Made by a program: the position numbers and the translations under genes. The notes below the pieces were generated by a model that was not told the origin of the DNA, made no database searches, and was given only the letters and a program-made list of their open reading frames with translations. From NCBI GenBank assembly GCA_947447615.1, contig CANFJQ010000007.1:10428-42427 (forward strand): a stretch of 32,000 nucleotides of DNA, given 5' to 3'. Origin of the DNA: Comamonadaceae bacterium. Lineage in GTDB: Bacteria > Pseudomonadota > Gammaproteobacteria > Burkholderiales > Burkholderiaceae_C. This document shows positions 4,956 through 29,233 of the stretch, piece after piece (positions within the stretch are counted from its first letter, which is position 1; every line of letters begins with the position of its first letter).

Positions 4956-5017
4956 ACCCTGCGGGCGCAGGCTTTAACTGCGCCAACCGCTAATCGCATC
5001 CTCCGCGCGCTATAGCC

Positions 5018-5048: not shown

Positions 5049-5060
5049 CTGGAGCAAAAT

Positions 5061-5324
5061 TTAGGCCAGTGCTTTGTGCGCACCATCACACAAGGGCTTG
5101 GCAGCGCTGTGTTTGCAACCGCAAAAATACACCGTCTTGGTTTCTTCGGTGTGGTATTTCACCGGAGTGAACGCGCTGCCTTTGTGCGAACCATCGCAAA
5201 ATGGTTGCGACTTGCTTTGCCCGCAGGAGCACCAGTAGTAATCTTTACCCGCCTCCACATTGCTGGCGTACGGGGACTTTTGGGCGATATGGGGTTCCAT
5301 GGGCTTTTCCTTCTTGTTAAACAT
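5061..5324 (-). CDS. CDGSH iron-sulfur domain-containing protein
   Basis: Two CDGSH-type motifs: CSCGQSKSQPFCDGSHKG and CGCKHSAAKPLCDGAHK. Confidence 0.85.
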   Translation of the reverse strand: MFNKKEKPMEPHIAQKSPYASNVEAGKDYYWCSCGQSKSQPFCDGSHKGSAFTPVKYHTEETKTVYFCGCKHSAAKPLCDGAHKALA

Positions 5325-5382
5325 TTTTCAAGGTCACAGGCCACGCCGTGGTATGCGCTGCGTGCGGGCTATAGCCCACCCA

Positions 5383-6857: not shown

Positions 6858-6869
6858 CGGACGGCTTAT

Positions 6870-8543: not shown

Positions 8544-9230
8544 TTAGGCGAAGAGTTCGAGTATGCGCCATCCGCGCGCTTGGGCAATCGCGCGCAGCGG
8601 CTCATCCGGGTTGGTGGCCACTGGCACATTGGCCTTTTCTAAGAGCGGCAGGTCGTTGATCGAGTCGGAGTAAAACGTGCTGTGCACGTCCTGCCAGCCC
8701 AAATTACGCGCGGCCAGCCACGCTTGCACACGCGCCACCTTGCCTTCGCGAAAGCTGGGCACGCCGCGCACTTCGCCGGTAAACCAGCCGCTGCCGCCGG
8801 GCGTAGTGTCGCGCTGCAAATCGACAGCCATTAATTCGTCCGCGCCCAGGGCAGCAGCAATCGGGCGGGTGACAAATTCATTGGTCGCCGTCACCACAAT
8901 CACGGTGGCACCATCGGCTTTGTGCTGGCGCACCAAGTCAAAAGCTTGTGGCAACAAGCCGGGCTTGACCACTTCTTCCATATAGCGCGCATGCGCCTGG
9001 CGCGCAGCAGCTTCGCCACGCTGCACAAATGCGGCGGTGGCGAAGCGGGCGTATTCAAAAATGTCCAAGGTACCGGCTTTGTACTGGGCGTAAAAAATAT
9101 CGTTGCGCCGGGTGAACTCCACCGGGTCGGTCCAACCCAGGCGGGCGGTGAACTGGCCCCAGCTGTAATCAGAATCAAAAGGGATTAGCGTGTGGTCCAG
9201 GTCAAACAGGGCCAGCTTGGGCAAACTCAT
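8544..9230 (-). CDS. HAD-IB family hydrolase (phosphoserine-phosphatase-like)
   Basis: HAD motif I FDLDHTL at the N-terminus, motif II VVTATN, and motif IV-like YSDSINDLPLL. Confidence 0.8.
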   Translation of the reverse strand: MSLPKLALFDLDHTLIPFDSDYSWGQFTARLGWTDPVEFTRRNDIFYAQYKAGTLDIFEYARFATAAFVQRGEAAARQAHARYMEEVVKPGLLPQAFDLVRQHKADGATVIVVTATNEFVTRPIAAALGADELMAVDLQRDTTPGGSGWFTGEVRGVPSFREGKVARVQAWLAARNLGWQDVHSTFYSDSINDLPLLEKANVPVATNPDEPLRAIAQARGWRILELFA

Positions 9231-9916
9231 GTGTTCTCCAACATAGAACGAATCAAGGGGATGGTGATGGCGCGCTGGGTTTGTAGCGCGTAGCGGTCTA
9301 GCTCGTCGAGCAAGGCCAGCAGGCTGCCCAGGTCGCGGCTGAAGCGGCGCAAGGTGTAGTCCATCACTTCATCGCTTAAAAACAAGCCGCGCGCATCGGC
9401 CGCCTGGCGCAGCACAGCACGGCTTTGCGCTTCGCCCAGGGGCTGCATCAAAAATATATGGCCCCAGCCTAGGCGGGTGCGCAGGTCTTCTCGCAAGAGC
9501 AAATCGGCCGGTGCGCTGCTGCCAGCGGCCAGCACCGGGCGTTGCAGGCTGTGCGCCTGCACAAACCACTGAAAAGCGGTGTGCTGCTGAGCGGCGGAAT
9601 ACAGATGCACATCGTCCATCAGCACCATGGCCCAGGATTCGTCAAACTCGGGCGGCGTGGCGCCAGATGCATCCATGCACCCGGCGCTGGCGCCGCGTGC
9701 GCGCAGGCCTTCTTCTACCGCGCGCAGCAAATGCGTCTTGCCGCTTCCTTCTGGGCCCCACAAATAGGTCGGCACGGCGAGCGCGTCAGGTGCTGGCTGG
9801 CCTTGTAACAGGCGCTGCAAGTGCGCATGGACGGCGCTATTGGGGCCGGGGAAAAAATTGTCCAGCGTCGCCGGGCCGGGCATGGCGATGTCGAGCGCGA
9901 TTTGCCGCATCACCAT
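9227..9916 (-). CDS. hda: DnaA regulatory inactivator Hda
   Basis: Walker A-like GPEGSGKTHLL. The C-terminus RAITIPLIRSMLEN resembles the E. coli Hda end (KLTIPFVKEILKL). About 229 aa. An alternative ATG lies two codons downstream. Confidence 0.8.
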   Translation of the reverse strand: MVMRQIALDIAMPGPATLDNFFPGPNSAVHAHLQRLLQGQPAPDALAVPTYLWGPEGSGKTHLLRAVEEGLRARGASAGCMDASGATPPEFDESWAMVLMDDVHLYSAAQQHTAFQWFVQAHSLQRPVLAAGSSAPADLLLREDLRTRLGWGHIFLMQPLGEAQSRAVLRQAADARGLFLSDEVMDYTLRRFSRDLGSLLALLDELDRYALQTQRAITIPLIRSMLENT

Positions 9917-9919
9917 GAA

Positions 9920-10996
9920 TTAGCGCTGGTACAGGCCACTGGCCATGTAGCTATTACGCAAACGGCGTATCGCGACCAGCAACACGGCACTGGCCGGCAA
10001 GGCCACCAAAATGCCGACAAAGCCAAACACCTGGCCAAAGGCCATGAGCGCAAAAATCACGGCCAGAGGGTGCAGGCCGATGCGCTCGCCTACCAGGCGC
10101 GGCGTGAGGAAAAAGCTCTCAAGTACCTGGCCCAGGCCAAAGACCACGGCCACCATGGTCAGCGCATAAGTGGGGCCGGAAGTGGCGGAGAACTCCAGCA
10201 GCCCGGCCAGCAGCGCCAGCACCATGCCCAGCCCAAAACCCAGATAAGGCACAAACACCGCCAAGCCGGTAAAGGTGCCAATGGGCAGCGCCAGGTCCAA
10301 TCCAAACAAGGCCAGGGCCACGCTGTAATAAACCGCCAGCACGCCCATGACCACGATTTGCCCGCGCAGGTATTCGCCTAACACCTGGTCGGCATCGACC
10401 AAAAAGCTTTGGGTGTTTTCGCGGTAGCGCGGCGGGATGAGGGTGCGCAAGCCGACCATAAAACGGTCCCAGTCCATAAGCAGATAAAACAAAACCACGG
10501 GAATCAGCACCAAATTGCCAGCCACCGCCAATGCTGCACTGCCACCGAGTTTGATCGAGGAAAGAAAGGAGCCCATCACGTCTTCCACGTTGGCGCTCAG
10601 GTAGGTCATGACAAAGGCTTTGATACCTGCCGGCTCAAGGCTGAAGTGCAGGCCCAATTTGCGCAGCGTGGGCTGGATGGCCGCATTGAGTTGCTCCAGG
10701 AAGCCGGGCAGTTGCTCGCGCATCAGCGGCAGTTCCTTCACCAATATCGGCACCAGCAGCAGCACCAAGCCCACCAGCAGCACCAACACCAGCAATTCCA
10801 CCAGCACCACAGCCAACACGCGGGGTACGGTACCGCGCAGGCGGGCATCGAGCCAATCGACCAGCGGGGTAAGCGCGTAAGCCAGTACGGCGGCGACGGC
10901 AAAAGGCGCCAGCACTGGCGCCAACAACCAGAGGGTCAGCACGCAAAAGGCAATCAGGGCTGCCCAGGCGGCGGCGCTTTTTTGGGAGTCCGTCAA
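9920..10996 (-). CDS. AI-2E family transporter (PerM-like permease)
   Basis: Multi-TM protein with the typical AI-2E C-terminal half (GLHPLAVIFALMAFGQVFGFVGILVALP). I prefer the TTG at 10996, which has a GGAGAA 5 nt upstream. The listed ATG at 11113 would overlap the purM start and adds a non-membrane, low-complexity leader. Confidence 0.75.
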   Translation of the reverse strand: MTDSQKSAAAWAALIAFCVLTLWLLAPVLAPFAVAAVLAYALTPLVDWLDARLRGTVPRVLAVVLVELLVLVLLVGLVLLLVPILVKELPLMREQLPGFLEQLNAAIQPTLRKLGLHFSLEPAGIKAFVMTYLSANVEDVMGSFLSSIKLGGSAALAVAGNLVLIPVVLFYLLMDWDRFMVGLRTLIPPRYRENTQSFLVDADQVLGEYLRGQIVVMGVLAVYYSVALALFGLDLALPIGTFTGLAVFVPYLGFGLGMVLALLAGLLEFSATSGPTYALTMVAVVFGLGQVLESFFLTPRLVGERIGLHPLAVIFALMAFGQVFGFVGILVALPASAVLLVAIRRLRNSYMASGLYQR

Positions 10997-11105
10997 TGCT
11001 TCTCCAGAAGGGGCCGGGGTAAGACCGTAAAATCGAAGGCTGATTCTATCGGGCGCGCCCCGATTCCCCTCTCGCAGGCACGCCTGCCCCAGCCCCGCCC
11101 ATTCC

Positions 11106-12158
11106 ATGACCACTTCGCCCCCGCCCGCCGCCAGCCCTTTGTCCTACAAGTCTGCCGGGGTGGACATAGCCGCTGGGGATGCATTGGTCGAGCGTATCAA
11201 GCCCTTGGCGCGCAAAACCATGCGCGAAGGCGTGCTGGCGGGCATTGGCGGCTTTGGCGCGCTATTTGAGGTGCCCAAACGCTATAAAGAGCCGGTGTTG
11301 GTCAGCGGCACCGACGGCGTGGGCACCAAGCTCAAACTGGCGTTTGAATGGAATATGCACGACACCGTGGGCATCGACCTGGTGGCCATGAGCGTCAACG
11401 ACGTGCTGGTGCAAGGCGCCGAGCCCCTGTTTTTTCTGGACTACTTTGCCTGCGGCAAGCTGGACGTGGACACTGCAGCAGCGGTGATTGGCGGGATTGC
11501 CAAGGGCTGCGAGCTGTCGGGCTGCGCGCTGATCGGCGGCGAAACCGCGGAAATGCCGGGCATGTATCCGGCAGGCGAATACGACCTGGCCGGGTTTGCG
11601 GTGGGCGCGGTGGAAAAATCCAAAATCTTGAGCGGCGCCGATGTGAAGCCAGGCGACGTGGTGTTGGGACTGGCCTCCAGCGGCGTGCATTCCAACGGTT
11701 TTAGCCTGGTACGCAAATGCATTGAGCGCGCCGCCGGGCAATTGCCCGCCACCTTAGATGGCAAACCCTTTAAGCAGGCCTTGATGGAGCCGACCCGCCT
11801 TTATGTAAAAAACGTATTGGCCGCGCTGGCCGCGCACCCTATCAAGGCCTTGGCCCACATCACCGGCGGCGGTTTGCTGGAAAACATCCCGCGCGTGCTT
11901 CCAGAAGACTGCGCCGCCCAGCTAGTTAAAGGTAGCTGGGCGCAAACCGAACTCTTTGCCTGGCTACAAAACACCGCCGGGATTGACGACATAGAGATGA
12001 ACCGCACTTTTAATAACGGCATTGGCATGGTGGTGGTCATCGACGCCGCCCATGCCGCCGCTTGCGCCCACACGCTGCGCGATGCGGGCGAAGCCGTGTA
12101 CGAGATCGGGGCAATCGTGCAGGCGCAGGTGGGAGCGGCCAAGGTAACGGTGGGGTGA
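11106..12158 (+). CDS. purM: phosphoribosylformylglycinamidine cyclo-ligase (AIR synthetase)
   Basis: Colinear with E. coli PurM motifs [35 protein letters not shown] and [11 protein letters not shown]. Confidence 0.95.
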
Positions 12159-12219
12159 TTACGCGGCTGACACAATAGGTCGTTAGGATGCGCGCCTGTT
12201 GAATAGAAAGGGACTTTGC

Positions 12220-13014
12220 ATGCACCAAAAGAAACCTTATTTTGCGCACTTATTTTGCGGACTTGGCGCACTCGGACTGCTTGCATTTTTTAATGCAGCC
12301 ATAGCCCAAAACGCAGTGCCCGCAGCGCAAGCCGCCAGCGGCGCAGTTACTGCGGTGGTGACGACCAACCCCTACGGATTAGAAGCCCTTTGGGAAGGCT
12401 CGGACCTGGTAACCAAAATGGTCTTGCTGCTGCTCCTGATCATGAGCATGGGTAGCTGGTACATCATGATTGTCAAGGTGCTGGAGCAAAGCAAGATGGG
12501 CCGCCAAGGCAAAGACGCCCAAGCATTTTGGAGTGCTGCCACTGTGGCCGAAGGCACGGCAGCGTTATCGCAAGAAAGCCCCTACCGTTTCTTAGCCGAT
12601 GCCGCTGGCGCGGCGGTCAACAAGCACCACGGCCTGATGGGCCATATCCCTCTCAATGACTGGATCGCCATGGCCATCCAGCGGGCGGTGGACCGGGTGC
12701 AGAGCAATACCCAAAACGGCCTGGCCTTTTTGGCCACCGTAGGCTCCACCTCTCCCTTTGTCGGCTTGTTTGGCACGGTCTGGGGCATCTACCACGCGCT
12801 CACTGCCATCGGCATCTCCGGCCAAGCCTCTATCGACAAAGTAGCCGGCCCCGTGGGCGAAGCGCTGATCATGACAGCCATCGGCCTGGCAGTGGCCGTG
12901 CCCGCAGTGCTGGCCTACAACTGGCTAGTGCGCCGTAATAAAGCGGTGATGGACGAGGTGCGCGCCTTTGGCAACGACCTGCACGCCGTGGTGCTGGGCA
13001 CCATCAAGAACTAA
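12220..13014 (+). CDS. exbB: MotA/TolQ/ExbB proton-channel protein
   Basis: Channel motif GLFGTVWGI...GPVGEALIMTAIGLAVAVPAV. The ATG at 12220 is preceded by agaaaggg. It is followed by two exbD genes and tonB. Confidence 0.85.
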   Translation: MHQKKPYFAHLFCGLGALGLLAFFNAAIAQNAVPAAQAASGAVTAVVTTNPYGLEALWEGSDLVTKMVLLLLLIMSMGSWYIMIVKVLEQSKMGRQGKDAQAFWSAATVAEGTAALSQESPYRFLADAAGAAVNKHHGLMGHIPLNDWIAMAIQRAVDRVQSNTQNGLAFLATVGSTSPFVGLFGTVWGIYHALTAIGISGQASIDKVAGPVGEALIMTAIGLAVAVPAVLAYNWLVRRNKAVMDEVRAFGNDLHAVVLGTIKN

Positions 13015-13044
13015 GGCCCGCTTTTTCTTCGCAGGCGCAGCACT

Positions 13045-13473
13045 ATGGCAATGAACGTGGGCCCTGGCCCTGATGACAACGACGCGGTCATCTCTACCAT
13101 CAACACCACGCCTTTGGTCGATGTGATGCTGGTCTTGCTGATCATCTTCCTGATCACCATCCCCGTGGTCACCACCGCCATCCCGGTGACCCTGCCCAAA
13201 GAGCGCATTGAGGTGCGCGAGACCAAGCCGGAGAACGTCATCATCTCGGTGGATGCGCAAAGCAATATCTTTTGGTACGAAGCGCGCGTGAGCAACGTAG
13301 AGGCGCTAACCGAGAAGCTGAAGAAAGTCGCCACCCAAAAGCCCCAACCCGAGGTGCAAATCCGGGGTGACCTGGCCGCGCGCTACGAAGGCGTAGGCAA
13401 GGTGCTGCTGGCCTGCCAGCGCGCAGGCATTGTCAAGGTGGCCTTCATCACCGAACCGCCTCCCCTGAATTAA
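13045..13473 (+). CDS. exbD: biopolymer transporter ExbD (copy 1)
   Basis: ExbD/TolR signature INTTPLVDVMLVLLIIFLI; 142 aa. Confidence 0.9.
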   Translation: MAMNVGPGPDDNDAVISTINTTPLVDVMLVLLIIFLITIPVVTTAIPVTLPKERIEVRETKPENVIISVDAQSNIFWYEARVSNVEALTEKLKKVATQKPQPEVQIRGDLAARYEGVGKVLLACQRAGIVKVAFITEPPPLN

Positions 13474-13495
13474 AGCGCAGCAGGACACTTCCACC

Positions 13496-13921
13496 ATGGC
13501 CATGAACATTGGAAACCGCGGCGCCAGCGACGAGCCAGAGCTGATGATGGAGATCAACACCACGCCGCTGATTGACGTGATGCTGGTCTTGCTGGTGATG
13601 CTGATCATCACCATCCCCATCCAGCTGCATGCGGTGAACCTGGAAATGCCGGTGGGCGCGCCGCCGAATCAGCAAAAAATGGAAAAAATCCAGATCGATA
13701 TTGATTCGGCCAGCGTGGTTTATTGGAACGGGCTCGCGATGTCAGGCACAGAGTTGGACCAAAAAATGCAGGCGATTGGCCAATGGGCCGTGCAGCCGGA
13801 GGTGCATATCCGCCCCAACAAGGATGCGCGCTATGCGGTGTTTGCCCATGTGCTCTCGGGTACCAAGCGCCACGGGCTGACCAAGATTGCCGTGATCGGC
13901 GCTGAGCAATTTGTCCAATGA
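13496..13921 (+). CDS. exbD: biopolymer transporter ExbD (copy 2)
   Basis: ExbD/TolR signature INTTPLIDVMLVLLVMLII; 141 aa. It overlaps the tonB start by 4 nt. Confidence 0.9.
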   Translation: MAMNIGNRGASDEPELMMEINTTPLIDVMLVLLVMLIITIPIQLHAVNLEMPVGAPPNQQKMEKIQIDIDSASVVYWNGLAMSGTELDQKMQAIGQWAVQPEVHIRPNKDARYAVFAHVLSGTKRHGLTKIAVIGAEQFVQ

Positions 13922-14694
13922 GCGCTTTGGGTGAATTGGCGACCTCTAGCCGTGGCGCCAGCAGCGCCTGGCCTCACGGTTTTGGGCAGCAGGACAAAAG
14001 CCGCAGGCTCAAAGGCATTGCCTTTGTGCTGGTCGTGCATTTGGTGGTGGGCTATGTACTGATCTCCGGCCTGGCGCGCCAAGGGTTGACAATTCTCAAA
14101 AAGCCGCTTGAGGCGGTACTTATCCAAGAGGTAATCATCCCACCGCCACCACCGCCGCCTCCCCCACCGCCCAAGAAAATCGAGCCGCCGCCCGAGATGC
14201 CCAAGGTACAGGCGCCGCCGCCACCTTTTGTGCCGCCGCCGGATGTTCCGCCACCGGTAGCGACTACCGCACCAGTAATTCAAGCTGCACCGACACCGCC
14301 GCCCACGCCGCATGTGATTGCGCCGCCACCTCCTCCCGCCCCTCCGGCACCGCCTGCGCCTGCGCCTGCGCCTGCGCCTGCGCCAGCGCCACCGGCGCCA
14401 CCCCCACCCGCACCAGCGGTCTCACCGACACCCAAGGCAGTAAGTAATGTGTGCCCTAATGCAAATGCAGCTGAAAACAAACCCAATTACCCCCGTCGCG
14501 CATTTCAAGATGGTGTGCAAGGGGAAGTCGTCGTGCAAGCATTGATAAAAAACGGGCGCATACAGGAAGTCAGTTGGGTGTCAGGCCCCAAGGTTTTTAT
14601 GAATGAAATCAAGGCCGCCATGGGCAAGTACAAATGCAATGGCGACTACGAAGGCCTGGTGCCCGCTGTTTTTTCCTTCAAACTGGATGAATGA
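13918..14694 (+). CDS. tonB: energy transducer TonB
   Basis: N-terminal TM anchor, a very long Pro-rich spacer (PPPPPPPPPPPKK, APAPAPAPAP), and a C-terminal TonB domain (YPRRAFQDGVQGEVVV). Confidence 0.85.
   Translation: MSALGELATSSRGASSAWPHGFGQQDKSRRLKGIAFVLVVHLVVGYVLISGLARQGLTILKKPLEAVLIQEVIIPPPPPPPPPPPKKIEPPPEMPKVQAPPPPFVPPPDVPPPVATTAPVIQAAPTPPPTPHVIAPPPPPAPPAPPAPAPAPAPAPAPPAPPPPAPAVSPTPKAVSNVCPNANAAENKPNYPRRAFQDGVQGEVVVQALIKNGRIQEVSWVSGPKVFMNEIKAAMGKYKCNGDYEGLVPAVFSFKLDE
14351..14392 (+). repeat. Tandem hexanucleotide repeat (cgcctg x5, then cgccag and cgccac) inside tonB, encoding (Pro-Ala)n
   Basis: Read directly: cgcctgcgcctgcgcctgcgcctgcgcctgcgccagcgccac. Confidence 0.9.
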
Positions 14695-14709
14695 TCCAGT
14701 AGGGGCGAC

Positions 14710-15585
14710 TCAATTGGACTCGCGCCGTTTGCCCAATTGCCGTCTCAGCAAATCCACTTGGCTGCTGATAGCCTCAGCATCAACCACGTCATTGGCATTG
14801 ACGACGTAGCACTCCAGGTCTGCCAGTGCTTCCCCGTGGTTACCAAGCATAGCGTGGGCCAGGCCCCGGTCGCGGTATTCGGACCAGGCTTCGGGCGCCA
14901 GCACGATCAGCCGCTCTTGCACCGCAAGCCATTGGCTGCCGTGTTTTTGGCTGCGGAAAATCTCTTTCAAATTACGCAGCATGCGCGTCAGGATGTCGCG
15001 CGGTGGGGAGGCTTGCAAATACAGGCCTAGCGGCACCTCAAAATCCGCCCCGTGCTTGCCGCCCAAGCGGTAGGGTTCGAGCATTTCCTTGAGCTCTTCG
15101 CGGCTGAAAGACTGCCCGTTCATCGGGTCGATAACCGCCTGCCCTGCGGGCAGCGGCACCTTGATTAAAAAATGCCCGGGGAAGCTAACGCCCTTAGCAT
15201 CGAGCCCCAGGCCTTGCGCCAGTTCCAACCAGATGACGGCCATCGAGATGGGGATACCGCGCCGCGTCTCCATGACCTGGTGTAGATAGCTGTTATCGGG
15301 TGCGTAATAGTCGTTGAGGTTGCCGGCAAAGCCTAGCTCTTGGTAGAAAAAGCGGTTGAGTGCCATCAAGCGGGCCATGCCCGCAGCATCGGCGGGCACG
15401 CGCTTGCGTAAGCGCATTTGCCATTGGTCCATGCGCGAAAGTGTGGCTTGCACGTCCAGGTCGGCATCGCGCATATAGCCCAATGCGGCAGCAGCTTCAA
15501 ACAGGGGAAAGCCGCCGTCGCTGTGCACCAGGGACGCGAAATACGCCAAGGGGCTGGGCGGTTCAAAAGAAAAATCCATGCGCAA
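14710..15585 (-). CDS. SirB1/YchA-like protein (transglutaminase-like N-domain plus TPR-like C-domain)
   Basis: 291 aa. The call rests on recalled family resemblance (VIWLELAQGLGL...GVSFPGHFLIK, followed by a helical TPR-like tail). It has not been verified by search. Confidence 0.55.
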   Translation of the reverse strand: MRMDFSFEPPSPLAYFASLVHSDGGFPLFEAAAALGYMRDADLDVQATLSRMDQWQMRLRKRVPADAAGMARLMALNRFFYQELGFAGNLNDYYAPDNSYLHQVMETRRGIPISMAVIWLELAQGLGLDAKGVSFPGHFLIKVPLPAGQAVIDPMNGQSFSREELKEMLEPYRLGGKHGADFEVPLGLYLQASPPRDILTRMLRNLKEIFRSQKHGSQWLAVQERLIVLAPEAWSEYRDRGLAHAMLGNHGEALADLECYVVNANDVVDAEAISSQVDLLRRQLGKRRESN

Positions 15586-15616
15586 CTCTATCGCAAATCA
15601 GCCAAATTGCGCAGGC

Positions 15617-17176
15617 CTAGCGCCGTAAAAATTGGCGCAAATTCAGCCCCAGCGCCAGGATGCTGCCCAGGTACAAGAGCGCGGCACCGGCCAATACTAA
15701 AGCCACCCACAACACCCGCTGCAGCGGACCGCCGGGCATGTCCAACCACGTAAACGCTTGCGCCGCCCAAGCCAGATAGGCGCCCAAAGCCACACACGCA
15801 AGCAGGACTTGCAGCGCAAAGCGGCCCCAGCCGGGTTTTGGCTGATAACTGCCCCGCACCCGCAGCCCACGCAATAGCCACAACGCATTGAGCAATGCGC
15901 CCAGCGATATCGACAAGGACAAAGCCGCGTGCCGGAAATAAGGCACCAGCGCCCAGTTGAGCACCTGGGTAATAACGAGCACCAGCACCGCAATGCGCAC
16001 CGGCGTCTTCACGTCCTGGCTCGCGTAATAGCCAGGTGCCAGCACTTTGATTGCCACCAAGCCCACCAGGCCCACACCCCAACCGGTGAGGGCCAAGGCA
16101 GTTTGCTGTACATCAAAAGCGGTGAAGGCGCGGTAATGAAACAACACCGCGACCAAGGGCTGCGCGAACAACAAAAGCGCAACCGCGCAAGGTGTGGCAA
16201 GCAAGACCACGATACGCAAACCCCAATCCAGCAGCGCGGAATAGTCGTCGGCATTGGCCGTGGCGCGCGCTGAGGCCAGCCGGGGCATCAGCACCACGCC
16301 CAGCGCCACGCCCAGCATGGCGGTGGGAAACTCCATCAAGCGGTCGGCATAGCTGAGCCAGCTGACGCTGCCAACGGCCAGGTGGGAAGCAATCTGGGTG
16401 TTGATGAGCAAAGAAATTTGCGCCACGCTCACACCAAGCAAGGCGGGGCCCATGAGGCGCAAAATCGTGCGCATGCCGGGGTCCTTCCAGGCCGCGCGCA
16501 GCGCGGACCAGCCCAAGCCCAGTCGCGGCAGCAAACCCAAAGCCGCTAACGCAGGTATTTGCAGGCCTAGCTGCAAGAGGCCACCGGCCATCACCCCCAC
16601 CGCCATGGCAAAAATCGGCTCTATGCCTTGCGCGCCAAACCAAGGCGAAAGCCACCAAGCCGCCGCAATCGTGCTGACGTTAAGCAGCACCGGGGTGGCC
16701 GCCGGAATGGCAAAGCGCTTGTAGGTATTCAAAATCCCCGAGGACAGCGCCACCAGCGACATGCAGCCGATGTAGGGGAACATAAAGCGCGTCATCCACA
16801 CCGCAGCATCAAAGCCCGCTGGTGGCAAGCCGCTGGCCATGGCCCAGACCATCCAGGGCGCAAGCAATACGCCTGCCACACACACCAGCACCATGGCCCA
16901 GGCCAGCAGCGTGGCTACTTGGTCGATCAGGACTTTGGTGGCGGCATCGCCGTTTTGCGCTTTGCTGGCGGCCAGCACCGGAACAAATGCCTGGCTGAAA
17001 GCGCCTTCGGCAAACATGCGGCGAAACAGATTGGGGATGCGAAAGGCGACATTGAACGCGTCGGTCAGGGCGCTGGCGCCAAAGAGCGCGGCCATCAGGG
17101 TTTCGCGCAGCAAGCCGGTGACGCGCGAGGCCAATGTCCAGGCGGACACGGTAGAGGCGGACTTGAGGAGGCTCAC
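15617..17176 (-). CDS. murJ: lipid II flippase MurJ (MviN)
   Basis: The N-terminus SRVTGLLRE...[28 protein letters not shown] is the classic MurJ signature. Predicted to be a polytopic membrane protein (multiple hydrophobic segments); 519 aa. It is divergent from rpsT, as in many proteobacteria. Confidence 0.92.
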
Positions 17177-17260
17177 GGCGGGAGTTTAGCCGCTACCCCC
17201 TGCAAGGCTATAATGGTGGGCTTTGCTGGCAACATCCACAGACAACTAGGAAATACATTT

Positions 17261-17560
17261 ATGGCATCCGGAAAACCCAAGAAAAAGAACCCGCGCTTAG
17301 CGTCGGGCCGCAAACGCGTCCGCCAGGACGTCAAAATCAATGCAGCCAACACCTCGCTGCGCTCCAAATACCGCACCGCGGTGAAGAACGTTGAAAAAGC
17401 CGTTCTCGCCGGTGACAAAACCAAAGCAGCCGAGCTGTTTGGCAAGATGCAGGCCGTGGTGGACACCATCGCCGACAAAGGCATCTTCCACAAGAACAAA
17501 GCCGCCCGCGACAAGAGTCGTTTGGCCACCAAGGTAAAAACCTTGGCACTCGCCGCCTGA
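17261..17560 (+). CDS. rpsT: 30S ribosomal protein S20
   Basis: The last 99 codons of listed ORF 16628..17560, starting at the ATG at 17261: [23 protein letters not shown]...[13 protein letters not shown]. The upstream part of the listed ORF is a GC shadow of murJ. Confidence 0.92.
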
Positions 17561-17630
17561 TTCTTCAGGTGCACAGCCCGAATCCTCCCGCAGGATTCGC
17601 CGTTTGAATCGGGTGCGCTGCCAGCAAAGC

Positions 17631-17657
17631 AAAAAGCCGTCGCAAGACGGCTTTTTT
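17631..17657. terminator. Rho-independent terminator shared by convergent rpsT and the flavin reductase gene
   Basis: Stem aaaaagccgtc, loop gcaa, stem gacggcttttt, followed by a T-run. Confidence 0.75.
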
Positions 17658-17694
17658 GTGGGCGCAACATCGGCAAACCGTGGCGAAAACGCCG

Positions 17695-18315
17695 TCAGCG
17701 CGGCCGCACCATGCGAAATAGCTGTTCCGGGCCGATGCTGAAATAGTCCGACGGACCGCCGCCGCGCAGTATGGGGCGGGCAGCCGCCGTGTCGTAGATA
17801 CCGCCTTGCAGGAGCGCGCTGGCGATATGCACTTTGACTACTTCGCCAAACACCATCCAGGTGTTCAGTTCCTCGCCCTGTGCCGAACGCAAGGGCATGT
17901 GCTGGCTGACTTTGCATTCAAAGCTAACCGGGCTTTGGGCCACACGCGGCGCCCTGACCAGGTCGGAAGGCAGCGGGCTCAATCCGGCTAAGGCGAATTC
18001 GTCCACTTCGGGGGCCACATGGGCGCAGGTCTGGTTCATGGCTTCGGCCAGGTCTTGGGTGGCTAAGTTCCAGACGAATTCGCCGGTTTCAATGGCATTG
18101 CGCACCGTGTCTTTGTAGCCCAGGCTGCTAAAGCCGATGATGGGCGGCACGTAATTGAAAGCATTGAAAAAGCTGTAGGGCGCCAGGTTCAACACGCCGC
18201 TGAGGCTGCATGTGGAAATCCAGCCGATCGGGCGCGGGCCGACGATGGCGTTAAACGGGTCGTGCGCCAGGCCGTGGCCCAAGCGGGGTTCGTAGGAGTG
18301 GATGCTTGTGGTCAT
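17695..18315 (-). CDS. flavin reductase family protein
   Basis: Flavin_Reduct-type N-terminal segment PRPIGWISTCS...NLAPYSFFNAF; 206 aa. Confidence 0.8.
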   Translation of the reverse strand: MTTSIHSYEPRLGHGLAHDPFNAIVGPRPIGWISTCSLSGVLNLAPYSFFNAFNYVPPIIGFSSLGYKDTVRNAIETGEFVWNLATQDLAEAMNQTCAHVAPEVDEFALAGLSPLPSDLVRAPRVAQSPVSFECKVSQHMPLRSAQGEELNTWMVFGEVVKVHIASALLQGGIYDTAAARPILRGGGPSDYFSIGPEQLFRMVRPR

Positions 18316-23793: not shown

Positions 23794-25923
23794 TCAAGCC
23801 AACCTTGCCGCCGCCATAGTGGCAGTCAGTTTGCTGTAGTGCCGCTCAATCATCGCTGCACTATTGCCCATCTGACGAGCCAGTGTGTATATGTCCATCC
23901 TGTTCGCCAGCAGTACCTGCGTCGCATAGGTGTGTCTTAGCGAATATAGGGTTCGGATTTTCTCTGCCCCATCCACGAATAAGCCAGCATCCCTAAGCAG
24001 CCGTCTAAATGTTCCATTGAAACTCAAAGGCTGATAACCATTATGGATGCGAAATAATTTCTGACATAACCTCTGCTGGAATAACGCTTCAAACTCTATG
24101 TGCTGTATGTTTGCTTGCCTTAGGTGCAGCCGCTTTAATACTGCGACCGCCTCGTGCCGGGCTATCAACCACCTGCCCCCGGTCTTTCCATCCACCCACA
24201 CCCGCAAATACCTCGTGCCCTTGTCCGTGTGCCACTCCAAGTGCCGCCAGCATATGCCCATAGCCTCTGTGCCGTGCCGCATACCGGTGTAGAGCAGCAT
24301 TTACACGTAATCCACTAGCAGGTAGCGGATTTCGCCTTCCACTGCCTTGACCGCCCGATCCTTCCAAGTCTCCATATGAAAAGCCGGCTCTGACCAAGCG
24401 GCTCTCAGTACGGCAAGTGTATTTACAAATGCTGGCCAGATTCTGGACCATCCGCGCAATTTATCGTCTGGTCGCATACGGTTACTTTGTCCTTGGTGCC
24501 ATGCACTGAGTGCTTGGATTATCAATCAGGCGTATTCCACTGCAAATTGGCTAAAAAATATCAAGGCACAGACAGCGCCGTTATTTATTCAAGATACTTT
24601 CCACCACCCTGGGAGACTTTTTGTGACCGTAAGAATTATATAAATGATAGCGTGGCGCAACATAGATATCGCTTATGTCTGTAGGCACATCAGTAAATAA
24701 TTTATCGTATTCTCGGTTAATAAAAAAAGCATTCGCGCCATTATGCGAGTTGCAACAAATCAACCTATATCCATATTTGTCAAACATTTCCACCAAGTTT
24801 GTTAACGCTGCGCCAAAATAGTCGTCTCCACTCCACAGATGTTCCGGATCGTAGGCTATCTGGAATTTTGCTGGAGGAATAAATTTACCATTATATTCAG
24901 CGATGAATAACTTCGGGTGAATATCATTAGCCAATAATTTTTCCAGAAAATAAATATCGTTACCATCTAAGTCAAGAGACAATATGTCAATCTCACTTGC
25001 ACCCAAGGCTTTCATGCCTGAATGCGCGTGTACCAAAACGTTATCGATGGTAATCCAAGATTGGATATTATGGAACTTAGTGGCTTTACTGTAGTCAAAA
25101 ACCAAGTCCTCTCCACCAACCCAGAATCCCTTCCAACCACAGGCTGCAAGTATTAGGGTATTGTTTTCAAGACCATTGCCCACGCCAAATTCAGCATAAA
25201 CGCCACTTGATAAACCCAACCTTCGCACAATTTCCAAAGTAATGCCATCCTCATCCGTCTGGGAAAAGCATTTTTTTCCGAAACTGTTCAGGGGATTTTT
25301 ATGGGCGGCTTGTAACTGCTTGGTTTGAAAATCCAACTGCAAATCTTTAAATTGCGCCAATAAGCGCAACATCGACTGCTGAATTTGGGCGCTCGCAAGA
25401 ATATTTTTATCAATATTTTCGATTCGCAAATCAAAATTCTTTAAGACGTCTAAATCAGTCATAAATCTCGCGCCCTCAAAATTCGTTGTTAAAGTCGTTA
25501 CTACCGCGCATGCTTAATGCGCCAGATAAACGATGCCGAGCTTGAAGTGTAAGGGGTCAATTTTGGGTGGCATTCAACAGCCAGTGTCAGTTGGGCAATC
25601 TGTGCAAACAGGTGTGTTCGGTGTGCTAAGCCCAACCTGGTGCGGTAGCGGGCTTCATCGTATATATCGCAGGCACGGGCTATGGCTGCTTCTATGCTGC
25701 TCGCTCCAGTAGTCTGTCTGTGCCAAGCACCTGAGGGAAGACGGAAGCGGCATTGGTAGCGTTGGCTGCGGCTGCGGCGATAAACCGTCAATGCACCATC
25801 ACGCAGGACTATCTGTTTGGGTGGGTTGGTGGCGGACGATGGAGGGGTGTGGCGGACTGGGGCGGCGGCTTGGGCTTTAAGGGTAAGCGACTCAATCACC
25901 ACCGCACCTGACTGGACAAACAA
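23794..25923 (-). pseudogene. Tyrosine recombinase (phage-type integrase), disrupted
   Basis: The N-terminal piece (25501..25923) carries LTVYRRSRSQRYQCRFRLPSGAWHRQTTG...YDEARYRTRLGL. The middle piece (24301..24525) and the catalytic C-terminus (23794..24300: LLYTGMRHGTE, LRHTYAT, ERHYSK) are in one frame but separated by a TAA at 24301-24303. The stretch 24526-25500 is replaced by an unrelated low-GC gene. Confidence 0.8.
24581..25462 (-). CDS. SAM-dependent methyltransferase-like protein (FkbM-type, tentative)
   Basis: EFGVGNGLENNT resembles SAM-binding motif I. IDILSLDLDGNDIYFLEKL...PKLFIAEYN resembles the FkbM-family core. This gene contains the lowest-GC lines I hand-counted (about 30-45%). 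Confidence 0.55.
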   Translation of the reverse strand: MTDLDVLKNFDLRIENIDKNILASAQIQQSMLRLLAQFKDLQLDFQTKQLQAAHKNPLNSFGKKCFSQTDEDGITLEIVRRLGLSSGVYAEFGVGNGLENNTLILAACGWKGFWVGGEDLVFDYSKATKFHNIQSWITIDNVLVHAHSGMKALGASEIDILSLDLDGNDIYFLEKLLANDIHPKLFIAEYNGKFIPPAKFQIAYDPEHLWSGDDYFGAALTNLVEMFDKYGYRLICCNSHNGANAFFINREYDKLFTDVPTDISDIYVAPRYHLYNSYGHKKSPRVVESILNK

Positions 25924-25986
25924 GCATCCAATCCCACAAAGACAAAAGCCACCGCAGGGTCACGGTGGCTTTTGCAAGTATGAATC

Positions 25987-26031
25987 TGGTGGGACGTGCG
26001 GGGGTCGAACCCACGACAAACGGATTAAAAG
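25987..26031 (-). other. 3' half of a tRNA-Lys(UUU) gene, from anticodon loop to CCA; att-site remnant, not a functional tRNA
   Basis: The reverse complement reads CTTTTAA-TCCGT-TTGTC-GTGGG-TTCGACC-CCCGC-ACGTCCC-A-CCA. That is anticodon loop, 3' anticodon stem, variable loop, T arm, 3' acceptor strand, discriminator and CCA. No matching 5' acceptor strand (GGGACGT) or D arm follows. Confidence 0.75.
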
Positions 26032-26184
26032 TGCTTATGCAATTGATAATTCTCCAATGTTTGCAATGTTCTTTCGCCCCCACGCCGTCTTGGTGTGCAG
26101 CAAATTGTGTAGGACAAGTTTTTTGAATGCGGTGCGTGATGGGGCTTGGAAGTATTTGAACTATACCTGTCATGCGTGCGTCAG

Positions 26185-26201
26185 TGTCGTTTAAAACGAC
26201 A
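26185..26201. repeat. Palindrome TGTCGT-ttaaa-ACGACA (exact)
   Basis: Read directly. Intergenic, about 150 nt from the att remnant. Confidence 0.9.
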
Positions 26202-26288
26202 TGTAAATCGCTGCCAATACCCACGCTTTTATGGGGTTCTTGCATGGTTAGCAGCCATTTACTACCCTTAACACCCAGCGTAGCAAGC

Positions 26289-26501
26289 CTATAGCCCAGT
26301 GCTGATACTGCGTTGCTGTCGCTGCCTGCGTTCGTTTTCACGCTGCTGCCGCTGCCTGTCCCGTTCAGCCTGTAGTTGTTGTCTGTCCGTTTCAACATTT
26401 TGTTTCAGCGTTGCTATGCGTGCCTGTGCCGGATTTAGGGGTGGCTTGGGTTTGATGGGTTTGATAGTTATTTCGGCAATACGCATCAAGTATTTACGCA
26501 C
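26289..26501 (-). CDS. hypothetical Gln/Arg-rich coiled-coil protein
   Basis: 70-aa ORF with a GTG start (an ATG lies 5 codons in). It is the last gene of a minus-strand trio. The RBS is weak, so confidence is low. Confidence 0.35.
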   Translation of the reverse strand: MRKYLMRIAEITIKPIKPKPPLNPAQARIATLKQNVETDRQQLQAERDRQRQQRENERRQRQQRSISTGL

Positions 26502-26525
26502 TTGCTGCGTACTGCCTTTTTTGCA

Positions 26526-26672
26526 TCAATCCATCTGCGTGTAGTTCAGCACCATCCCTACACCATACTGAGCCTCTGCTAACTGCTTAGCAGCCCAAGC
26601 ATTCTCAGCGTAGATAACGGTGTTGGCGGTTTGGTAGGGGTTGATGCGTACCCATATCAAGTACTTGTTCAT
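26526..26672 (-). CDS. small hypothetical protein, 48 aa (too short for the ORF track)
   Basis: Hand translation gives MNKYLIWVRINPYQTANTVIYAENAWAAKQLAEAQYGVGMVLNYTQMD*. Its ATG overlaps the TGA of the upstream gene in an ATGA junction, suggesting translational coupling. Confidence 0.45.
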   Translation of the reverse strand: MNKYLIWVRINPYQTANTVIYAENAWAAKQLAEAQYGVGMVLNYTQMD

Positions 26673-27115
26673 TTCCCAAAGCCTGCACGAAGTTTTACTG
26701 ATGCTGCGTCCAGTGCTGCATCCAACTCACCAGCCAGTACCGCCGCCTTAATCAAGTCCAGTGTTGCGGGTAAGTCCTTCTCAGCGGCAATCTCCACTGC
26801 GTACTTCCCACGTGCAAGTTCAAGTAATTTCGTCCCATACCTAACACTCAGGCTCAACTTGCCCGTGTCAGCGACGAACCACCACTGCTTGATGCGTTTG
26901 TTGGTTTGAATGCTTTGGCGTGTGCCAGTGTGCTTGTCCGTAATAGTGCGATAGCGGGTGGGACTAAAGGTAGTACCCGCTGCCTGTGCCCGTGCCAGTT
27001 CTGCCTGTTCCCACAGCCGCTTGGCAAGTTTGTTGCGGCGTAGTTGCACAGGGCTCACGTGCGTGGGCTTTTGTGCTGCTGTCAGTTTCAATCCGGTTAG
27101 TGTTGCAGTAGTCAT
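26669..27115 (-). CDS. hypothetical protein, 148 aa
   Basis: Good RBS (aaggaa about 8 nt upstream of the ATG at 27115) and plausible protein composition (KQWWFVADTGKLSLSVRYG...). No function recognised. Confidence 0.6.
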   Translation of the reverse strand: MTTATLTGLKLTAAQKPTHVSPVQLRRNKLAKRLWEQAELARAQAAGTTFSPTRYRTITDKHTGTRQSIQTNKRIKQWWFVADTGKLSLSVRYGTKLLELARGKYAVEIAAEKDLPATLDLIKAAVLAGELDAALDAASVKLRAGFGK

Positions 27116-27332
27116 TGCTGGTTTCCTTTCTTAGTAGCAATGCAGACAACTTTAGTTTCGGATTTGGCGATTGAGCAACCTCTTTCTGCCACATCAAACT
27201 AATTTACCCAAAACCCTCTAAAAACACCAAATATCGCACCAGTTTTAGCCAGTAATTTCTTTGGTAGTGATAAATAAATGCGAGTGGCGAAGTGAGTTGC
27301 GATGAGTGGCTATGTCACAAGAAACTAAAAAA

Positions 27333-27565
27333 GTTACTTGTTGCAAGTTACACGTAACAGGTTACCCGTTACTTGTTACACGTCACACATGTCACTCGTT
27401 ACCAGTGACTGCGGTGACACAGGTGACGAGTGACACAGGTAACTGGGTAACCAGCAACCAGTAACCGGCAACGCCTTTTTGGCTCTCTGTGACAGAGCAA
27501 CTAAAAGGCAACAGAGGTAACAGGTAACCAATAACGACACAAGCAACTACGCCACTCCAAGTAAC
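27333..27565. repeat. Array of about 20 GTNAC pentamers plus GCAAC variants with 7-9 bp spacing; the orientation of the central base switches near 27403
   Basis: GTNAC start positions: 27333, 27347, 27354, 27361, 27368, 27375, 27382, 27391, 27398 | 27405, 27414, 27423, 27430, 27439, 27447, 27461, 27489, 27517, 27524, 27561. GCAAC starts: 27454, 27468, 27497, 27508, 27543. Confidence 0.9.
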
Positions 27566-27590
27566 TTCAATCATTTAAGGAGATAAAAAT

Positions 27591-28052
27591 ATGAAGAGCC
27601 AAAGAGAAATCGCAGTACGTCTGTACGCCAATCCCAAACTGGGAACCACCTACGCTAAAGGCATGTACCACTCAGCAGTATTTAACGCCGCTGCAGATGT
27701 TAAACATCCCTATGCCAAGTACCTGCTGGACTACCACACCTATGAGCGATGGGAGCATTCAGCCAAAACGGATGAACAGATGCAGGTGCTGCGTGAGACA
27801 CATGGCATGACTGCCACTGATGCACTTTTTAGTTGGGTGGTGCAGTACGACCCCAGCACCAAAGCCAAGCAGCCCGTCTTTGGGTTTAGTTACCTGAACC
27901 TGGCAGACAACTCACTGGGCTTACTGGTAATGCCTGAAGGTGAGGACGAACCCGCACAATGGATACTGACTGCCAAGCCCTGCAAAGAACGCATGGGCTG
28001 CAAGAGCCCTACCCTGCTGGCTACCAACGCAGATGACTTGGGCAGTTGGTAA
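27591..28052 (+). CDS. hypothetical protein, 153 aa
   Basis: Strong RBS (taaggagataaaaatATG). No domain recognised. Confidence 0.65.
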   Translation: MKSQREIAVRLYANPKLGTTYAKGMYHSAVFNAAADVKHPYAKYLLDYHTYERWEHSAKTDEQMQVLRETHGMTATDALFSWVVQYDPSTKAKQPVFGFSYLNLADNSLGLLVMPEGEDEPAQWILTAKPCKERMGCKSPTLLATNADDLGSW

Positions 28053-28660
28053 TTAAACAGCCCAGCGGGTTTAGCGTATTTAAACCGCCAAATCCGCTGT
28101 CCTAGCACCTGCCCTGCTACCCATGTAGGGCTATTCAGTGTGTGTCTATGTAGGTGTATGTAATTCCACGTGCAGTCACATTGCTGTTCATCAAAACACA
28201 AATGACATGCCACGTCCTAAGTGGGAATAGGTGATGCACATGACAGGTGACTTAGATTAAAACCACCAGCACTGATTAAACAGAAACCACGCAGATTATG
28301 CACAGCAGGTTTTTTGACTGCTGCTATAGAGGGGGCGGACTACTTTGCACAGCAGCACCTCAAATCCAGCGATAGTGCGGCGATACACCACCTAGCAAGG
28401 GCTTGGGTGCTGGGCACTGCGTAGGCTACGTGTAGGGCGTTTTACGCTGTACGTCTGCATCTGTTCCGCATCTGTGTCCGCTGCCCCACACCCAGCACTA
28501 AATAGTCAATACCAAAGAGAATTAGTAATCTACTTGCTCGGCAGTGCAAGTCATTGAAATTGAACGAATCAGCAATACACCGCCACTTTGGCGGGTTTCG
28601 GTTGCCCTCTCTGCGGCTAAGACTACATACTGCAACAACACAAACTATTTGGAGAAAAGA

Positions 28661-29233
28661 ATGGCAGCAGCAAAATCCCTAACCCCCGCAGAAATTGAGC
28701 GTGTTTTGCAATACATGTCCCACCGCTCTTTTGCACAACGCAATCGTGCCATGCTGATGATGACGGTGGCAGCGGGCTTGCGGGTTGGAGAAGTGGCGGG
28801 ACTTACGCTGGGTGATGTGCTTGAGGACGATGGCTCCGTGCGTGGCGAGATTTACCTTGCAGCACATCGCACCAAGCACAACCATGCAAGAACCATTTAC
28901 CTCAACACCAGGCTACAGGCGGAACTGGCTGCTTACATCCAACAGAGAACCGTTCGTCCCGCAAACTTTCCCCTGTTTCCCACCAATAGGGGCGATAGGT
29001 GTGCGTTCAGTGCAAATACCCTCACCCAGCACTTCTTTTGGATTTACAAGCGGGCTGGGCTAAAAAATTGCAGTTCGCACAGCGGACGCAAGACATTTAT
29101 AACCTCACTCGCATCGCAAGGGGTTAGCGTGTTTGTACTCGCTTCCCTCGCCGGGCACCTATCCATTGCTACCACCCAAAAATATGTGACTGTGAATGAC
29201 GACATCAAGCGTAGGGCGGTGGAGTTGGTTTGA
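28661..29233 (+). CDS. minimal tyrosine recombinase, catalytic domain only (~190 aa)
   Basis: The ATG at 28661 is preceded by ggagaaaaga. Catalytic pattern: AGLRVGEV (Arg), HSGRKTF (H-x-x-R), and GHLSIATTQKY (His...Tyr). The listed upstream extension from 28544 is unlikely to be real. Confidence 0.8.
   Translation: MAAAKSLTPAEIERVLQYMSHRSFAQRNRAMLMMTVAAGLRVGEVAGLTLGDVLEDDGSVRGEIYLAAHRTKHNHARTIYLNTRLQAELAAYIQQRTVRPANFPLFPTNRGDRCAFSANTLTQHFFWIYKRAGLKNCSSHSGRKTFITSLASQGVSVFVLASLAGHLSIATTQKYVTVNDDIKRRAVELV

Follow-up and report, generated by a model that had tools for sequence, protein, structure and literature searches.

A conserved array of inverted pentamer repeats precedes the p153 gene on integrative islands of freshwater Betaproteobacteria and may form a structured 5′ leader

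In the trp leader read by TRAP and the hut leader read by HutP, many short repeats with 2- to 4-nt spacers lie in the 5′ leader and are bound by a multimeric protein. The stem-loop in the 5′ untranslated region (UTR) of ompA and the RNase III-processed leaders of rnc and pnp are, in turn, short hairpins with no periodic conserved motif, and iteron-type origins with opposed short sites include the GAGGC pentamers of SV40, the ori/crr octamers of P4, and the SaPI ori. Type III toxin-antitoxin loci have tandem direct repeats of ~34 to 45 nt followed by a terminator, and their toxin is an endoribonuclease. Two accounts of such loci (ToxIN, CptIN, and TenpIN) describe a repeat RNA that is cotranscribed upstream of a small protein gene on mobile DNA and binds the protein stoichiometrically (PMC3401426, PMC8860590). 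At the operators and parS sites of pSM19035, the omega (ParB) protein reads contiguous nonpalindromic 7-bp units in direct and inverted orientation, with one dimer bound per unit and at least four contiguous units needed (PMC9499535). Here we describe an element that departs from each of the known systems compared in at least one of the defining features tested. It is a dense array of GTNAC-type pentamers in two opposed blocks, and it lies immediately upstream of the gene for a 153-amino-acid protein (p153) in a 32-kb stretch of DNA from a Comamonadaceae bacterium (contig CANFJQ010000007.1; this whole stretch is called the window below). The element is conserved, specific, and apparently undescribed. 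We favor the view that it is a transcribed, structured 5′ leader controlling p153 through an RNA-level mechanism, and we give this view about an even chance of being correct.

Between positions 27314 and 27565 of the window (252 nt) there are 21 exact GTNAC pentamers, against a local expectation of 0.43 (Poisson P ~2e-28). The richest 233-nt stretch holds 20 of them, which bears out the density claimed in an earlier note on this DNA, and sliding windows across the 32 kb revealed no second stretch with more than 3 per 233 nt, the mean for the rest of the window being 0.4. The window as a whole contains 75 GTNAC, close to the 76.8 expected from shuffled sequences, and 54 of these fall in the 31.7 kb beyond the array; GTNAC is therefore not enriched outside it. 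When GCAAC and GTTGC are counted as units together with GTNAC, a contiguous run of 19 units extends from 27333 to 27472, with start-to-start spacings of 7, 7, 7, 7, 7, 7, 7, 9, 7, 7, 9, 9, 7, 9, 8, 7, 7, and 7 nt. The earlier note had counted eighteen units from 27347 onward; they are indeed contiguous and spaced by 7 to 9 nt, but from that point there are 17 (15 GTNAC plus GCAAC at 27454 and 27468), and its list of spacings contained one 7 too many. The polarity that it described holds throughout, the units being GTYAC up to 27398, with GTAAC at 27354 as the sole exception, and GTRAC or GCAAC from 27405 on. The 9-mer ACAGGTNAC recurs at 27357, 27419, 27435, and 27520 as reported, with its copy outside the array at 28243 rather than 28244, and the three GGTNACC sequences of the array are present (27360, 27446, and 27523), joined by a further 12 elsewhere in the window. 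Tandem Repeats Finder returned the array only as fragments, with periods of 7, 9, 14, and 28. Spacings of 7 to 9 nt do not run in multiples of 3, in agreement with the view that this is not a coding repeat, and on the same ground we rejected the small open reading frames (ORFs) in the array (27306 to 27464 and two on the minus strand), which are known only from a mechanical ORF list. The array has a GC content of 45%, its center reads GTTACCAGTGACTGCGGTGAC, and there is no AT-rich unwinding stretch at that center. The array and the genes on either side of it comprise the following features.

26669 to 27115, minus strand: gene for a DUF6641 protein, which has more than 1,600 relatives
27256 to 27276, plus strand: promoter-like box TTTCTTTGG-N4-GATAAATA, with the putative −10 element GATAAATA at 27269 to 27276
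27282 to 27310, plus strand: 5′ boxes GAGTGGC/GAGTTGC/GAGTGGC, repeated every 11 nt and predicted to form the 5′ side of the closing helices
27320 to 27332, plus strand: purine/A-rich tract AGAAACTAAAAAA, an inverted repeat complementary to the pyrimidine tract at 27473 to 27483
27333 to 27402, plus strand: left arm, 10 GTYRC units (GTTAC, GTTGC, and GTCAC; one GTAAC) with 7- to 9-nt spacing
27403 to 27416, plus strand: hairpin apex in the predicted fold, with the loop CUGCGG at about 27409 to 27414
27405 to 27472, plus strand: right arm, 9 GYRAC units (four GTGAC, three GTAAC, and two GCAAC)
27473 to 27483, plus strand: pyrimidine tract GCCTTTTTGGC, a family landmark 90 to 110 nt before the ATG
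27489 to 27565, plus strand: distal GYRAC units at 27489, 27497, 27508, 27517, 27524, 27543, and 27561
27551 to 27557, plus strand: GCCACTC box, predicted to pair with 5′ box 1
27578 to 27583, plus strand: Shine-Dalgarno sequence AAGGAG, a type kept in nearly all homologues
27591 to 28052, plus strand: p153 coding sequence, ATG at 27591, 153 amino acids

To place this array in a wider context we retrieved 70 genomic DUF6641 loci and, from a metagenome scan with a p153 alignment, 80 more loci. The DUF6641 loci come from freshwater Betaproteobacteria, among them Limnohabitans, Polynucleobacter, further Comamonadaceae, and Paraburkholderia. Of the 70 loci, 64 lack the array, and the 6 that have a p153 homologue all carry it before p153. 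All 88 p153 genes, in 87 loci, have 3 to 18 G[TC][AG]AC units in the 450 nt upstream (chance, ~1.8), and wherever the sequence extends at least 220 nt upstream, 2 to 11 GTYRC units in the complementary orientation were present as well (chance, ~1.8). Searched the other way round, 1.21 Mb of loci plus the window contained 174 same-orientation clusters, 168 of them just upstream of p153; the remaining 6 fall in other parts of the loci where sequence complexity is low, in some cases within QR-rich ORFs. There is one array site per island. Some loci have the gene order recombinase, array, p153, DUF6641, and here too the array precedes p153, with the recombinase as its upstream neighbor. The most distant homologues, P0239 (profile E ~1e-8) and P0267 (~7e-4), retain the box, the 5′ GGAGTTGC boxes, both arrays, and the pyrimidine tract. 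An association with DUF6641 was rejected, as near-identical DUF6641 genes occur without the array: loci L001 and L002 encode DUF6641 proteins 98 to 99% identical to that of the window, with conserved flanks, and have neither p153 nor the array. Beyond p153 the window encodes a small tyrosine recombinase, a 244-amino-acid protein (p244), and a 314-amino-acid protein (p314). Because the recombinase, p244, p314, and DUF6641 are each widespread without the array, p153 is its only specific partner. We place high confidence in this linkage and in the leader anatomy set out below.

These loci also bear on the suggestion in the earlier note that the array is a replication origin of viral or satellite type, here of the island, in which an initiator would bind two opposed arrays of sites. 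Dense short sites in two opposed blocks do resemble the SV40, P4 ori/crr, and SaPI origins in form. However, L001 and L002 share the flanks of the window (90 to 94% identity) and lack the array, which occurs only with p153, and the origin reading is not supported because an island origin should not be dispensable. Unlike iteron-type origins, moreover, the element has no AT-rich unwinding core between its arms (45% GC) and no adjacent initiator gene, neither an initiator helicase nor a primase being recognized when the flanking ORFs were scanned against Pfam, NCBIfam, and PHROGs, and it fills the putative 5′ UTR exactly, always placed between the promoter-like box and the Shine-Dalgarno sequence of p153 whatever its upstream neighbor. 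We regard an origin as very improbable. Equally little weight attaches, in our judgment, to a functionless by-product, that is, a quasi-palindromic microsatellite expanded by slippage and made symmetrical through template switching. Such a by-product would fit the gain and loss of units in blocks, the expanded state of the window copy, and the absence of a strand bias (see below), but the array keeps the same place, landmarks, and unit sequence down to the limit of p153 detection, and neutral repeats do not persist that long.

The element measures ~180 to 320 nt. The window copy is an expanded, GT-rich outlier, and together with its near-twin L071 it is the densest of the p153 leaders. Across the family the right-arm unit is GCAAC in 46% of cases, followed by GTAAC, GAAAC, GCGAC, GCCAC, and GTGAC, and the modal spacing is 7. 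The palindromic GTNAC form is a peculiarity of the window lineage, and the family unit is an asymmetric GYRAC, mostly GCAAC; a reading of GTNAC as a restriction or methylation palindrome was rejected because relatives use GCAAC, GCGAC, and GAAAC. The order of landmarks is conserved and runs from the TTTCTTTGG-N4/5-GATAAATA box through three GAGTKGC boxes with an 11-nt period, a purine tract, GTYRC units, the apex, GYRAC units, the pyrimidine tract, and further units that include GCCACTC or GCAACTC, to AAGGAG and the ATG. The two arms differ in composition: G and U prevail in the left arm, in which C makes up 13%, and A and C prevail in the right arm. The right arm is also the longer of the two, and it has extra unpaired units that reach up to the Shine-Dalgarno sequence, the last unit lying 0 to 17 nt (mode, 4) before it across the family and 11 nt before it in the window; the GCMACTC boxes lie ~25 to 35 nt before it. 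Most relatives have a conserved CATTGGGRACAAATGAG hairpin as their apex; the window, L071, L072, L059b, and L060 lack it, and all 74 leaders that carry the apex motif have it in the same orientation. We rejected an invertible promoter switch of the FimB/FimE type on this ground: a recombinase of ~190 amino acids is adjacent, but the apex has one orientation in 74 of 74 leaders and the recombinase is widespread without the array.

Two observations at the edge of the family concern the same landmarks. At the distant p153 locus L158 (2730 to 2775), the left arm consists of about six GTTGCT units with a 6-nt period instead of 7, so the period is not strictly fixed across the family. In addition, the two most distant loci, L155 (470 to 500) and L158 (2950 to 2985), have a GC-rich hairpin with no U-run between the last unit and the Shine-Dalgarno sequence; the window clade has no such hairpin.

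The TTTCTTTGG/GATAAATA box is conserved upstream of all 36 nonredundant leaders, and it recurs, divergent from DUF6641, at loci where p153 is lacking. A conserved ORF of 100 to 140 amino acids follows it in L032 and L068, with the ATG 5 nt past the box, and sequence similarity indicates the same for L025, L031, and L036. This ORF, which follows a GATAAATA-type box and begins MNxYKNxKDDALTADWLRxNG, represents a third cargo type. In L001, L017, L027, L033, and L034 the box is followed by a different noncoding leader, which may be a noncoding RNA cargo. The 5-nt distance between box and ATG in the sister loci corresponds to leaderless mRNA geometry and therefore suggests that the box is a −10 element; the transcription start of the window leader is then likely to fall at ~27278 to 27281, just before the first GAGTGGC box. 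The palindrome begins 5 to 6 nt after the GATAAATA box and ends short of the Shine-Dalgarno sequence. Taken together, the conserved box and the leaderless sister ORFs make transcription of the array probable.

On a single strand, the two halves of the element are predicted to form a long rod-like hairpin of in-register 5-bp boxes with short, partly mismatched spacers. The predicted fold of the window leader has an energy of −114 kcal/mol (z = −7.1), and its inverted-repeat arms are 72 to 89% complementary. Among the 36 leaders, cognate arms pair with a mean of −72.0 kcal/mol versus −59.9 kcal/mol for noncognate arms, the cognate partner mostly ranks near the top of the 36, and shuffling whole repeat blocks within the right arm weakens the pairing (mean z = −2.9; below −2 in 30 of 36 leaders). 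Exactly in-register pairing with a left unit was found for 170 of the 183 fully paired right-arm units, and the paired fraction is 66% for box nucleotides and 52% for spacers. Box 1 pairs over 5 to 7 of its 7 nt in all 36 individual folds (over 7 of 7 in 31), with its partner site 15 to 38 nt from the 3′ end of the leader; in 34 of the folds, the unit just inside that site is the partner of box 2. The pair at position 5 of box 1 is G-C in 22 leaders and U-A in 11. Between clades, 5′ GAGTGGC covaries with 3′ GCCACTC and 5′ GAGTTGC with 3′ GCAACTC, and box 3 shows the alternatives C-G, U-A, G-C, and A-U. Insertions and deletions (indels) between relatives comprise whole units in blocks, with both arms affected in several lineages, and a purine tract on the left with a pyrimidine tract on the right recurs across the family.

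We favor action at the level of RNA because the palindrome occupies precisely the interval that opens at the inferred transcription start and closes shortly before the Shine-Dalgarno sequence, because the polarity of the array and the orientation of its apex do not vary with respect to the gene, because a reader of duplex DNA needs neither complementary spacers nor covarying outer boxes, and because each island has a single site. In this model, the GATAAATA box would serve as the −10 element, so that the whole array is transcribed, and the left and right halves would zip into a rod closed by the GAGTKGC-GCMACTC helices. The folded RNA would then set p153 expression by affecting how stable the mRNA is, how it is processed, or how accessible its Shine-Dalgarno sequence is. 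A multimeric protein might read the repeated boxes, with about one protomer per 7 nt, and if that reader were p153 itself the arrangement would be autoregulatory. As the only invariant partner of the array, p153 is the most likely candidate, and our confidence that it is the ligand of the leader is low.

Several results weigh against an RNA-level mechanism. The minimum free energy is equal for the two strands, the plus strand being favored in 20 of 36 leaders (Wilcoxon p = 0.64). G·U pairs number 189 on the plus strand and 201 on the minus strand, which counts against RNA because selection acting on an RNA should permit G·U pairs on the strand of that RNA alone. RNAalifold, applied to a MAFFT alignment of 23 close leaders, recovered the outer helices only, with no double substitutions within the clade; in the inner arms, unit indels prevent a column-by-column alignment. 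The per-sequence pair tables were themselves fitted by folding, and the between-clade covariation may rest on few events. We infer the promoter role of the box, since a scan for the sigma-70 consensus called no promoter here, nor was an intrinsic terminator called. The candidate reader p153 is without a recognizable nucleic-acid-binding domain. Finally, conservation of the pentamer exceeds what pairing explains, and a DNA-binding protein would fit equally well: the conserved pentamer implies a protein that reads it, and the substrate of that protein could be RNA, single-stranded DNA, or duplex DNA.

The last of these substrates is the basis of an explanation in which the array is an operator or roadblock in duplex DNA, with a small dimeric protein of the kind that reads 7- to 8-bp repeats (omega of pSM19035, ParG, or MetJ) coating the arrays and repressing p153. 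The omega operators are the closest described system in form, with which the related ribbon-helix-helix arrays of ParG parH and the MetJ boxes can be grouped. Here too the modal spacing is 7 nt in both arms, the units are nonpalindromic and occur in two orientations, and there is one orientation flip, at the center. An operator would in addition account for the retention of the pentamer sequence, beyond pairing, over deep divergence, for the absence of a strand bias in folding energy or G·U use, and for the position of the array between the promoter box and the gene. The two systems differ in the unit, which is WATCACW in the omega operators and GYRAC here. The omega operators overlap the −35 and −10 elements of promoters, several per replicon, whereas the array is a single site that lies downstream of the putative −10 box without overlapping it, and its arms are complementary to each other, spacers included. 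A duplex reader has no need for complementary spacers and unit order, for covariation between 5′ and 3′ boxes, or for matched indels in the two arms. Moreover, omega-type systems encode a small cognate ribbon-helix-helix protein and a ParA nearby, and the array has neither a ribbon-helix-helix nor a helix-turn-helix gene linked to it (the scans of flanking ORFs against Pfam, NCBIfam, and PHROGs gave no match to ribbon-helix-helix proteins or ParA), and DUF6641, the recombinase, p244, and p314 all occur without it. We consider an operator possible but on balance unlikely. Were duplex DNA read after all, the array would be a second, unrelated case of a heptad-spaced operator outside the omega family. 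The earlier note had offered a multisite operator and a track for a multimeric RNA- or single-stranded-DNA-binding protein as its alternatives, and both are still compatible with the evidence.

In a further explanation, the hairpin would function in single-stranded or extruded DNA, either as a single-strand promoter or primer site (Frpo/ssi or sso type) or as a folded recombination site at mobilization. The imperfect palindrome of 180 to 320 nt folds equally well on both strands, it is located on small integrative islands with tyrosine recombinases, and the block of promoter, leader, and p153 behaves as an exchangeable cassette between conserved flanks, all of which would suit such a role. Yet no relaxase or rolling-circle Rep was recognized in the islands examined, and the small recombinase and the integrase are present in many islands without the array. 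The ends of the element match the putative transcription start and the Shine-Dalgarno region, which a function confined to DNA does not predict. The integron attC site, a single imperfect palindrome of 57 to 141 nt with the ends RYYYAAC...GTTRRRY (AAC...GTT on either strand), lies 3′ of a promoterless cassette ORF. The array has the opposite arrangement, GTT...AAC and 5′ of the ORF, and it is multiunit, 180 to 320 nt long, and equipped with its own promoter-like box, so it does not match an attC site. A role of the hairpin in single-stranded DNA appears to us improbable.

Within the RNA-level readings, we also considered that the leader is the RNA partner of p153. GCAAC boxes would bind p153 protomers, one per heptad, and thereby sequester or neutralize the protein, in the manner of a type III toxin-antitoxin or abortive infection system, and the complementary half would compete from within the leader and so determine the number of exposed boxes. 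The repeat-then-gene layout is shared with type III loci, which makes them close in position. The loci differ in that the units here are 5 nt long with a 7- to 9-nt period, the arms are inverted, and no terminator was called; an RNA partner of this kind would thus combine an unrelated protein fold with 7-nt repeats in place of much longer direct repeats. Nor does p153 have a fold match of the ToxN/AbiQ type. The p153 family is small (42 clusters; 109 representatives at E ≤ 1e-3 among 1.84 billion). Searches against Pfam, NCBIfam, PHROGs, and the sequences of the Protein Data Bank (PDB) gave no match, and no relatives were found in phage and plasmid collections searched by tblastn or in IMG/VR. 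An AlphaFold2 model of p153, with a predicted local distance difference test (pLDDT) score of 87, consists mainly of beta strands plus two helices. Compared with the PDB by Foldseek, it gave a best E value of 0.2, and ToxN, CptN, and TenpN were absent among the 50 matches listed. BFVD likewise yielded no significant neighbor; the top named match there is a phage “single-stranded DNA-binding protein,” which at E = 0.078 and a template modeling score of 0.38 is not significant. The C terminus in the family consists of acidic residues followed by a terminal aromatic residue, which recalls the tails of single-stranded-DNA-binding proteins; we treat both this and the BFVD match as leads only. The RNA-partner reading is doubtful; if true, it would add a new RNA-protein pair on mobile islands.

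Returning to the proposed transcribed leader, the TRAP and HutP systems come close to it in position, as they share short repeats with 2- to 4-nt spacers, part of which can alternatively pair with a segment upstream, and a track that reaches the translation start region. They differ in that their repeats are GAG or UAG triplets whereas those described here are pentamers, and in that the complementary half here is itself a repeat array. No terminator or antiterminator of the TRAP/HutP type is apparent, as 27000 to 27700 holds no site resembling an intrinsic terminator; an intrinsic terminator or attenuator at the T-run is not supported, as no terminator was called and the A-tract is the predicted pairing partner of the T-run within the rod. 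The flanking ORFs scanned with Pfam included no homologue of TRAP or HutP, and the p153 fold is without a match in the PDB. In common with the ompA, rnc, and pnp leaders, the element would have its first transcript nucleotides paired and its leader occupied by a long imperfect duplex. Rfam 15, searched with window positions 27100 to 27700 and 16 related loci, returned only chance-level matches (miRNA-like hairpins, and potC at E values of 0.15 to 0.4 outside the leader). For GCAAC repeats, the literature searched yielded only one paper, on an in vitro GTP aptamer, and nothing on such arrays. That aptamer, the (GCAACA)n “CA motif” RNA, requires at least six perfect 6-nt repeats and works without base pairing (PMC4156500). 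It shares with the element tandem repeats that contain GCAAC, but the repeats here are spaced 7 to 9 nt apart, imperfect, and mostly paired, and we mention the likeness as a curiosity, not a proposal. The Rfam and literature searches thus agree with the earlier statement that no element with this motif has been described.

If the leader works as proposed, it would represent a new architecture of bacterial leader control, a rod built from ~10 to 30 copies of one pentamer, with halves that are mutually complementary and coupled to a protein family without known fold or function. The system is tractable, as promoter, leader, and gene form a small cassette, repeat number varies naturally between lineages, and cultured carriers exist in Polynucleobacter, among them P. 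acidiphobus (CP023277; around position 10001 of L151), P. meluiroseus AP-Melu-1000-B4, and Polynucleobacter sp. Latsch14-2. An understanding of the leader would also give initial access to what p153 does and to the DUF6641 islands, which are widespread in freshwater Betaproteobacteria.

The islands are integrative, are ~9 kb in size, carry tyrosine recombinases, and reside in freshwater Betaproteobacteria. Those at L152 to L154 encode DUF6641, p153, the 190-amino-acid recombinase, an AAA protein, three unknown proteins, an HTH_3 protein, and a 435-amino-acid integrase. Locus L153 contains two tandem island copies of ~8.8 kb (1 to 8267 and 9177 to 17866), from either tandem integration or the assembly of a circular form. 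Comparison of the window with L001 reveals conserved flanks on both sides, with 94% identity over 25983 to 27180 and 90% over 28130 to 28551. The intervening segment of the window, 27181 to 28129, which comprises the box, the leader, and p153, is replaced in L001 (1299 to 572) by an unrelated segment of ~727 nt that has a similar CATAAATA box and no ORF of more than 53 amino acids in that direction. It follows from this replacement between conserved flanks that the block of box, leader, and p153 behaves like an exchangeable cassette. At the DNA level, comparison of the window with E. coli genomes and plasmids revealed no similarity.

Between DUF6641 and the box lies a spacer (27116 to 27268) with a GC content of 38% and with conserved A-rich blocks, CAAACTAATTTNCCCAAAAC...CACCAAATATC, that recur at many DUF6641 loci whether or not p153 is present; this spacer probably serves as the promoter/operator region of DUF6641. 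A model of the DUF6641 protein (pLDDT, 71) gave no fold match, and nothing on DUF6641 was found in the literature searched. On the other side of the cassette, the spacer that precedes the recombinase gene (28130 to 28551) is conserved in L001 and could hold a recombinase site or a promoter. The recombinase ORF spans 28544 to 29233, and translation probably starts at the ATG at 28661 to give a protein of ~190 amino acids, as in L151 and L152. This is the size of FimB and FimE, corresponding to the catalytic domain only.

Farther upstream, two ORFs without a Pfam match, at 23794 to 24300 (168 amino acids) and 25501 to 25923 (140 amino acids), are separated by an ORF of 293 amino acids of unknown family (24581 to 25462). 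The DNA of the 168- and 140-amino-acid ORFs recurs beside the small recombinase in L071, and the two may be pieces of a disrupted integrase gene. The adjoining stretch from 25965 to 26050 translates like the 3′ half of a tRNA, and ARAGORN called no tRNA. The region from 23794 to 26050 looks like an old attachment site with a decayed neighboring island. Downstream of DUF6641, a 70-amino-acid ORF (p70; 26289 to 26501) encodes a low-complexity, Q/R-rich sequence with tblastn homologues in 5 of the 70 genomic loci. Q/R-rich stretches in L007, L024, and L027, likewise downstream of DUF6641 and read in the same way, give rise to GYRAC clusters that are not leaders, a coincidence of coding repeats.

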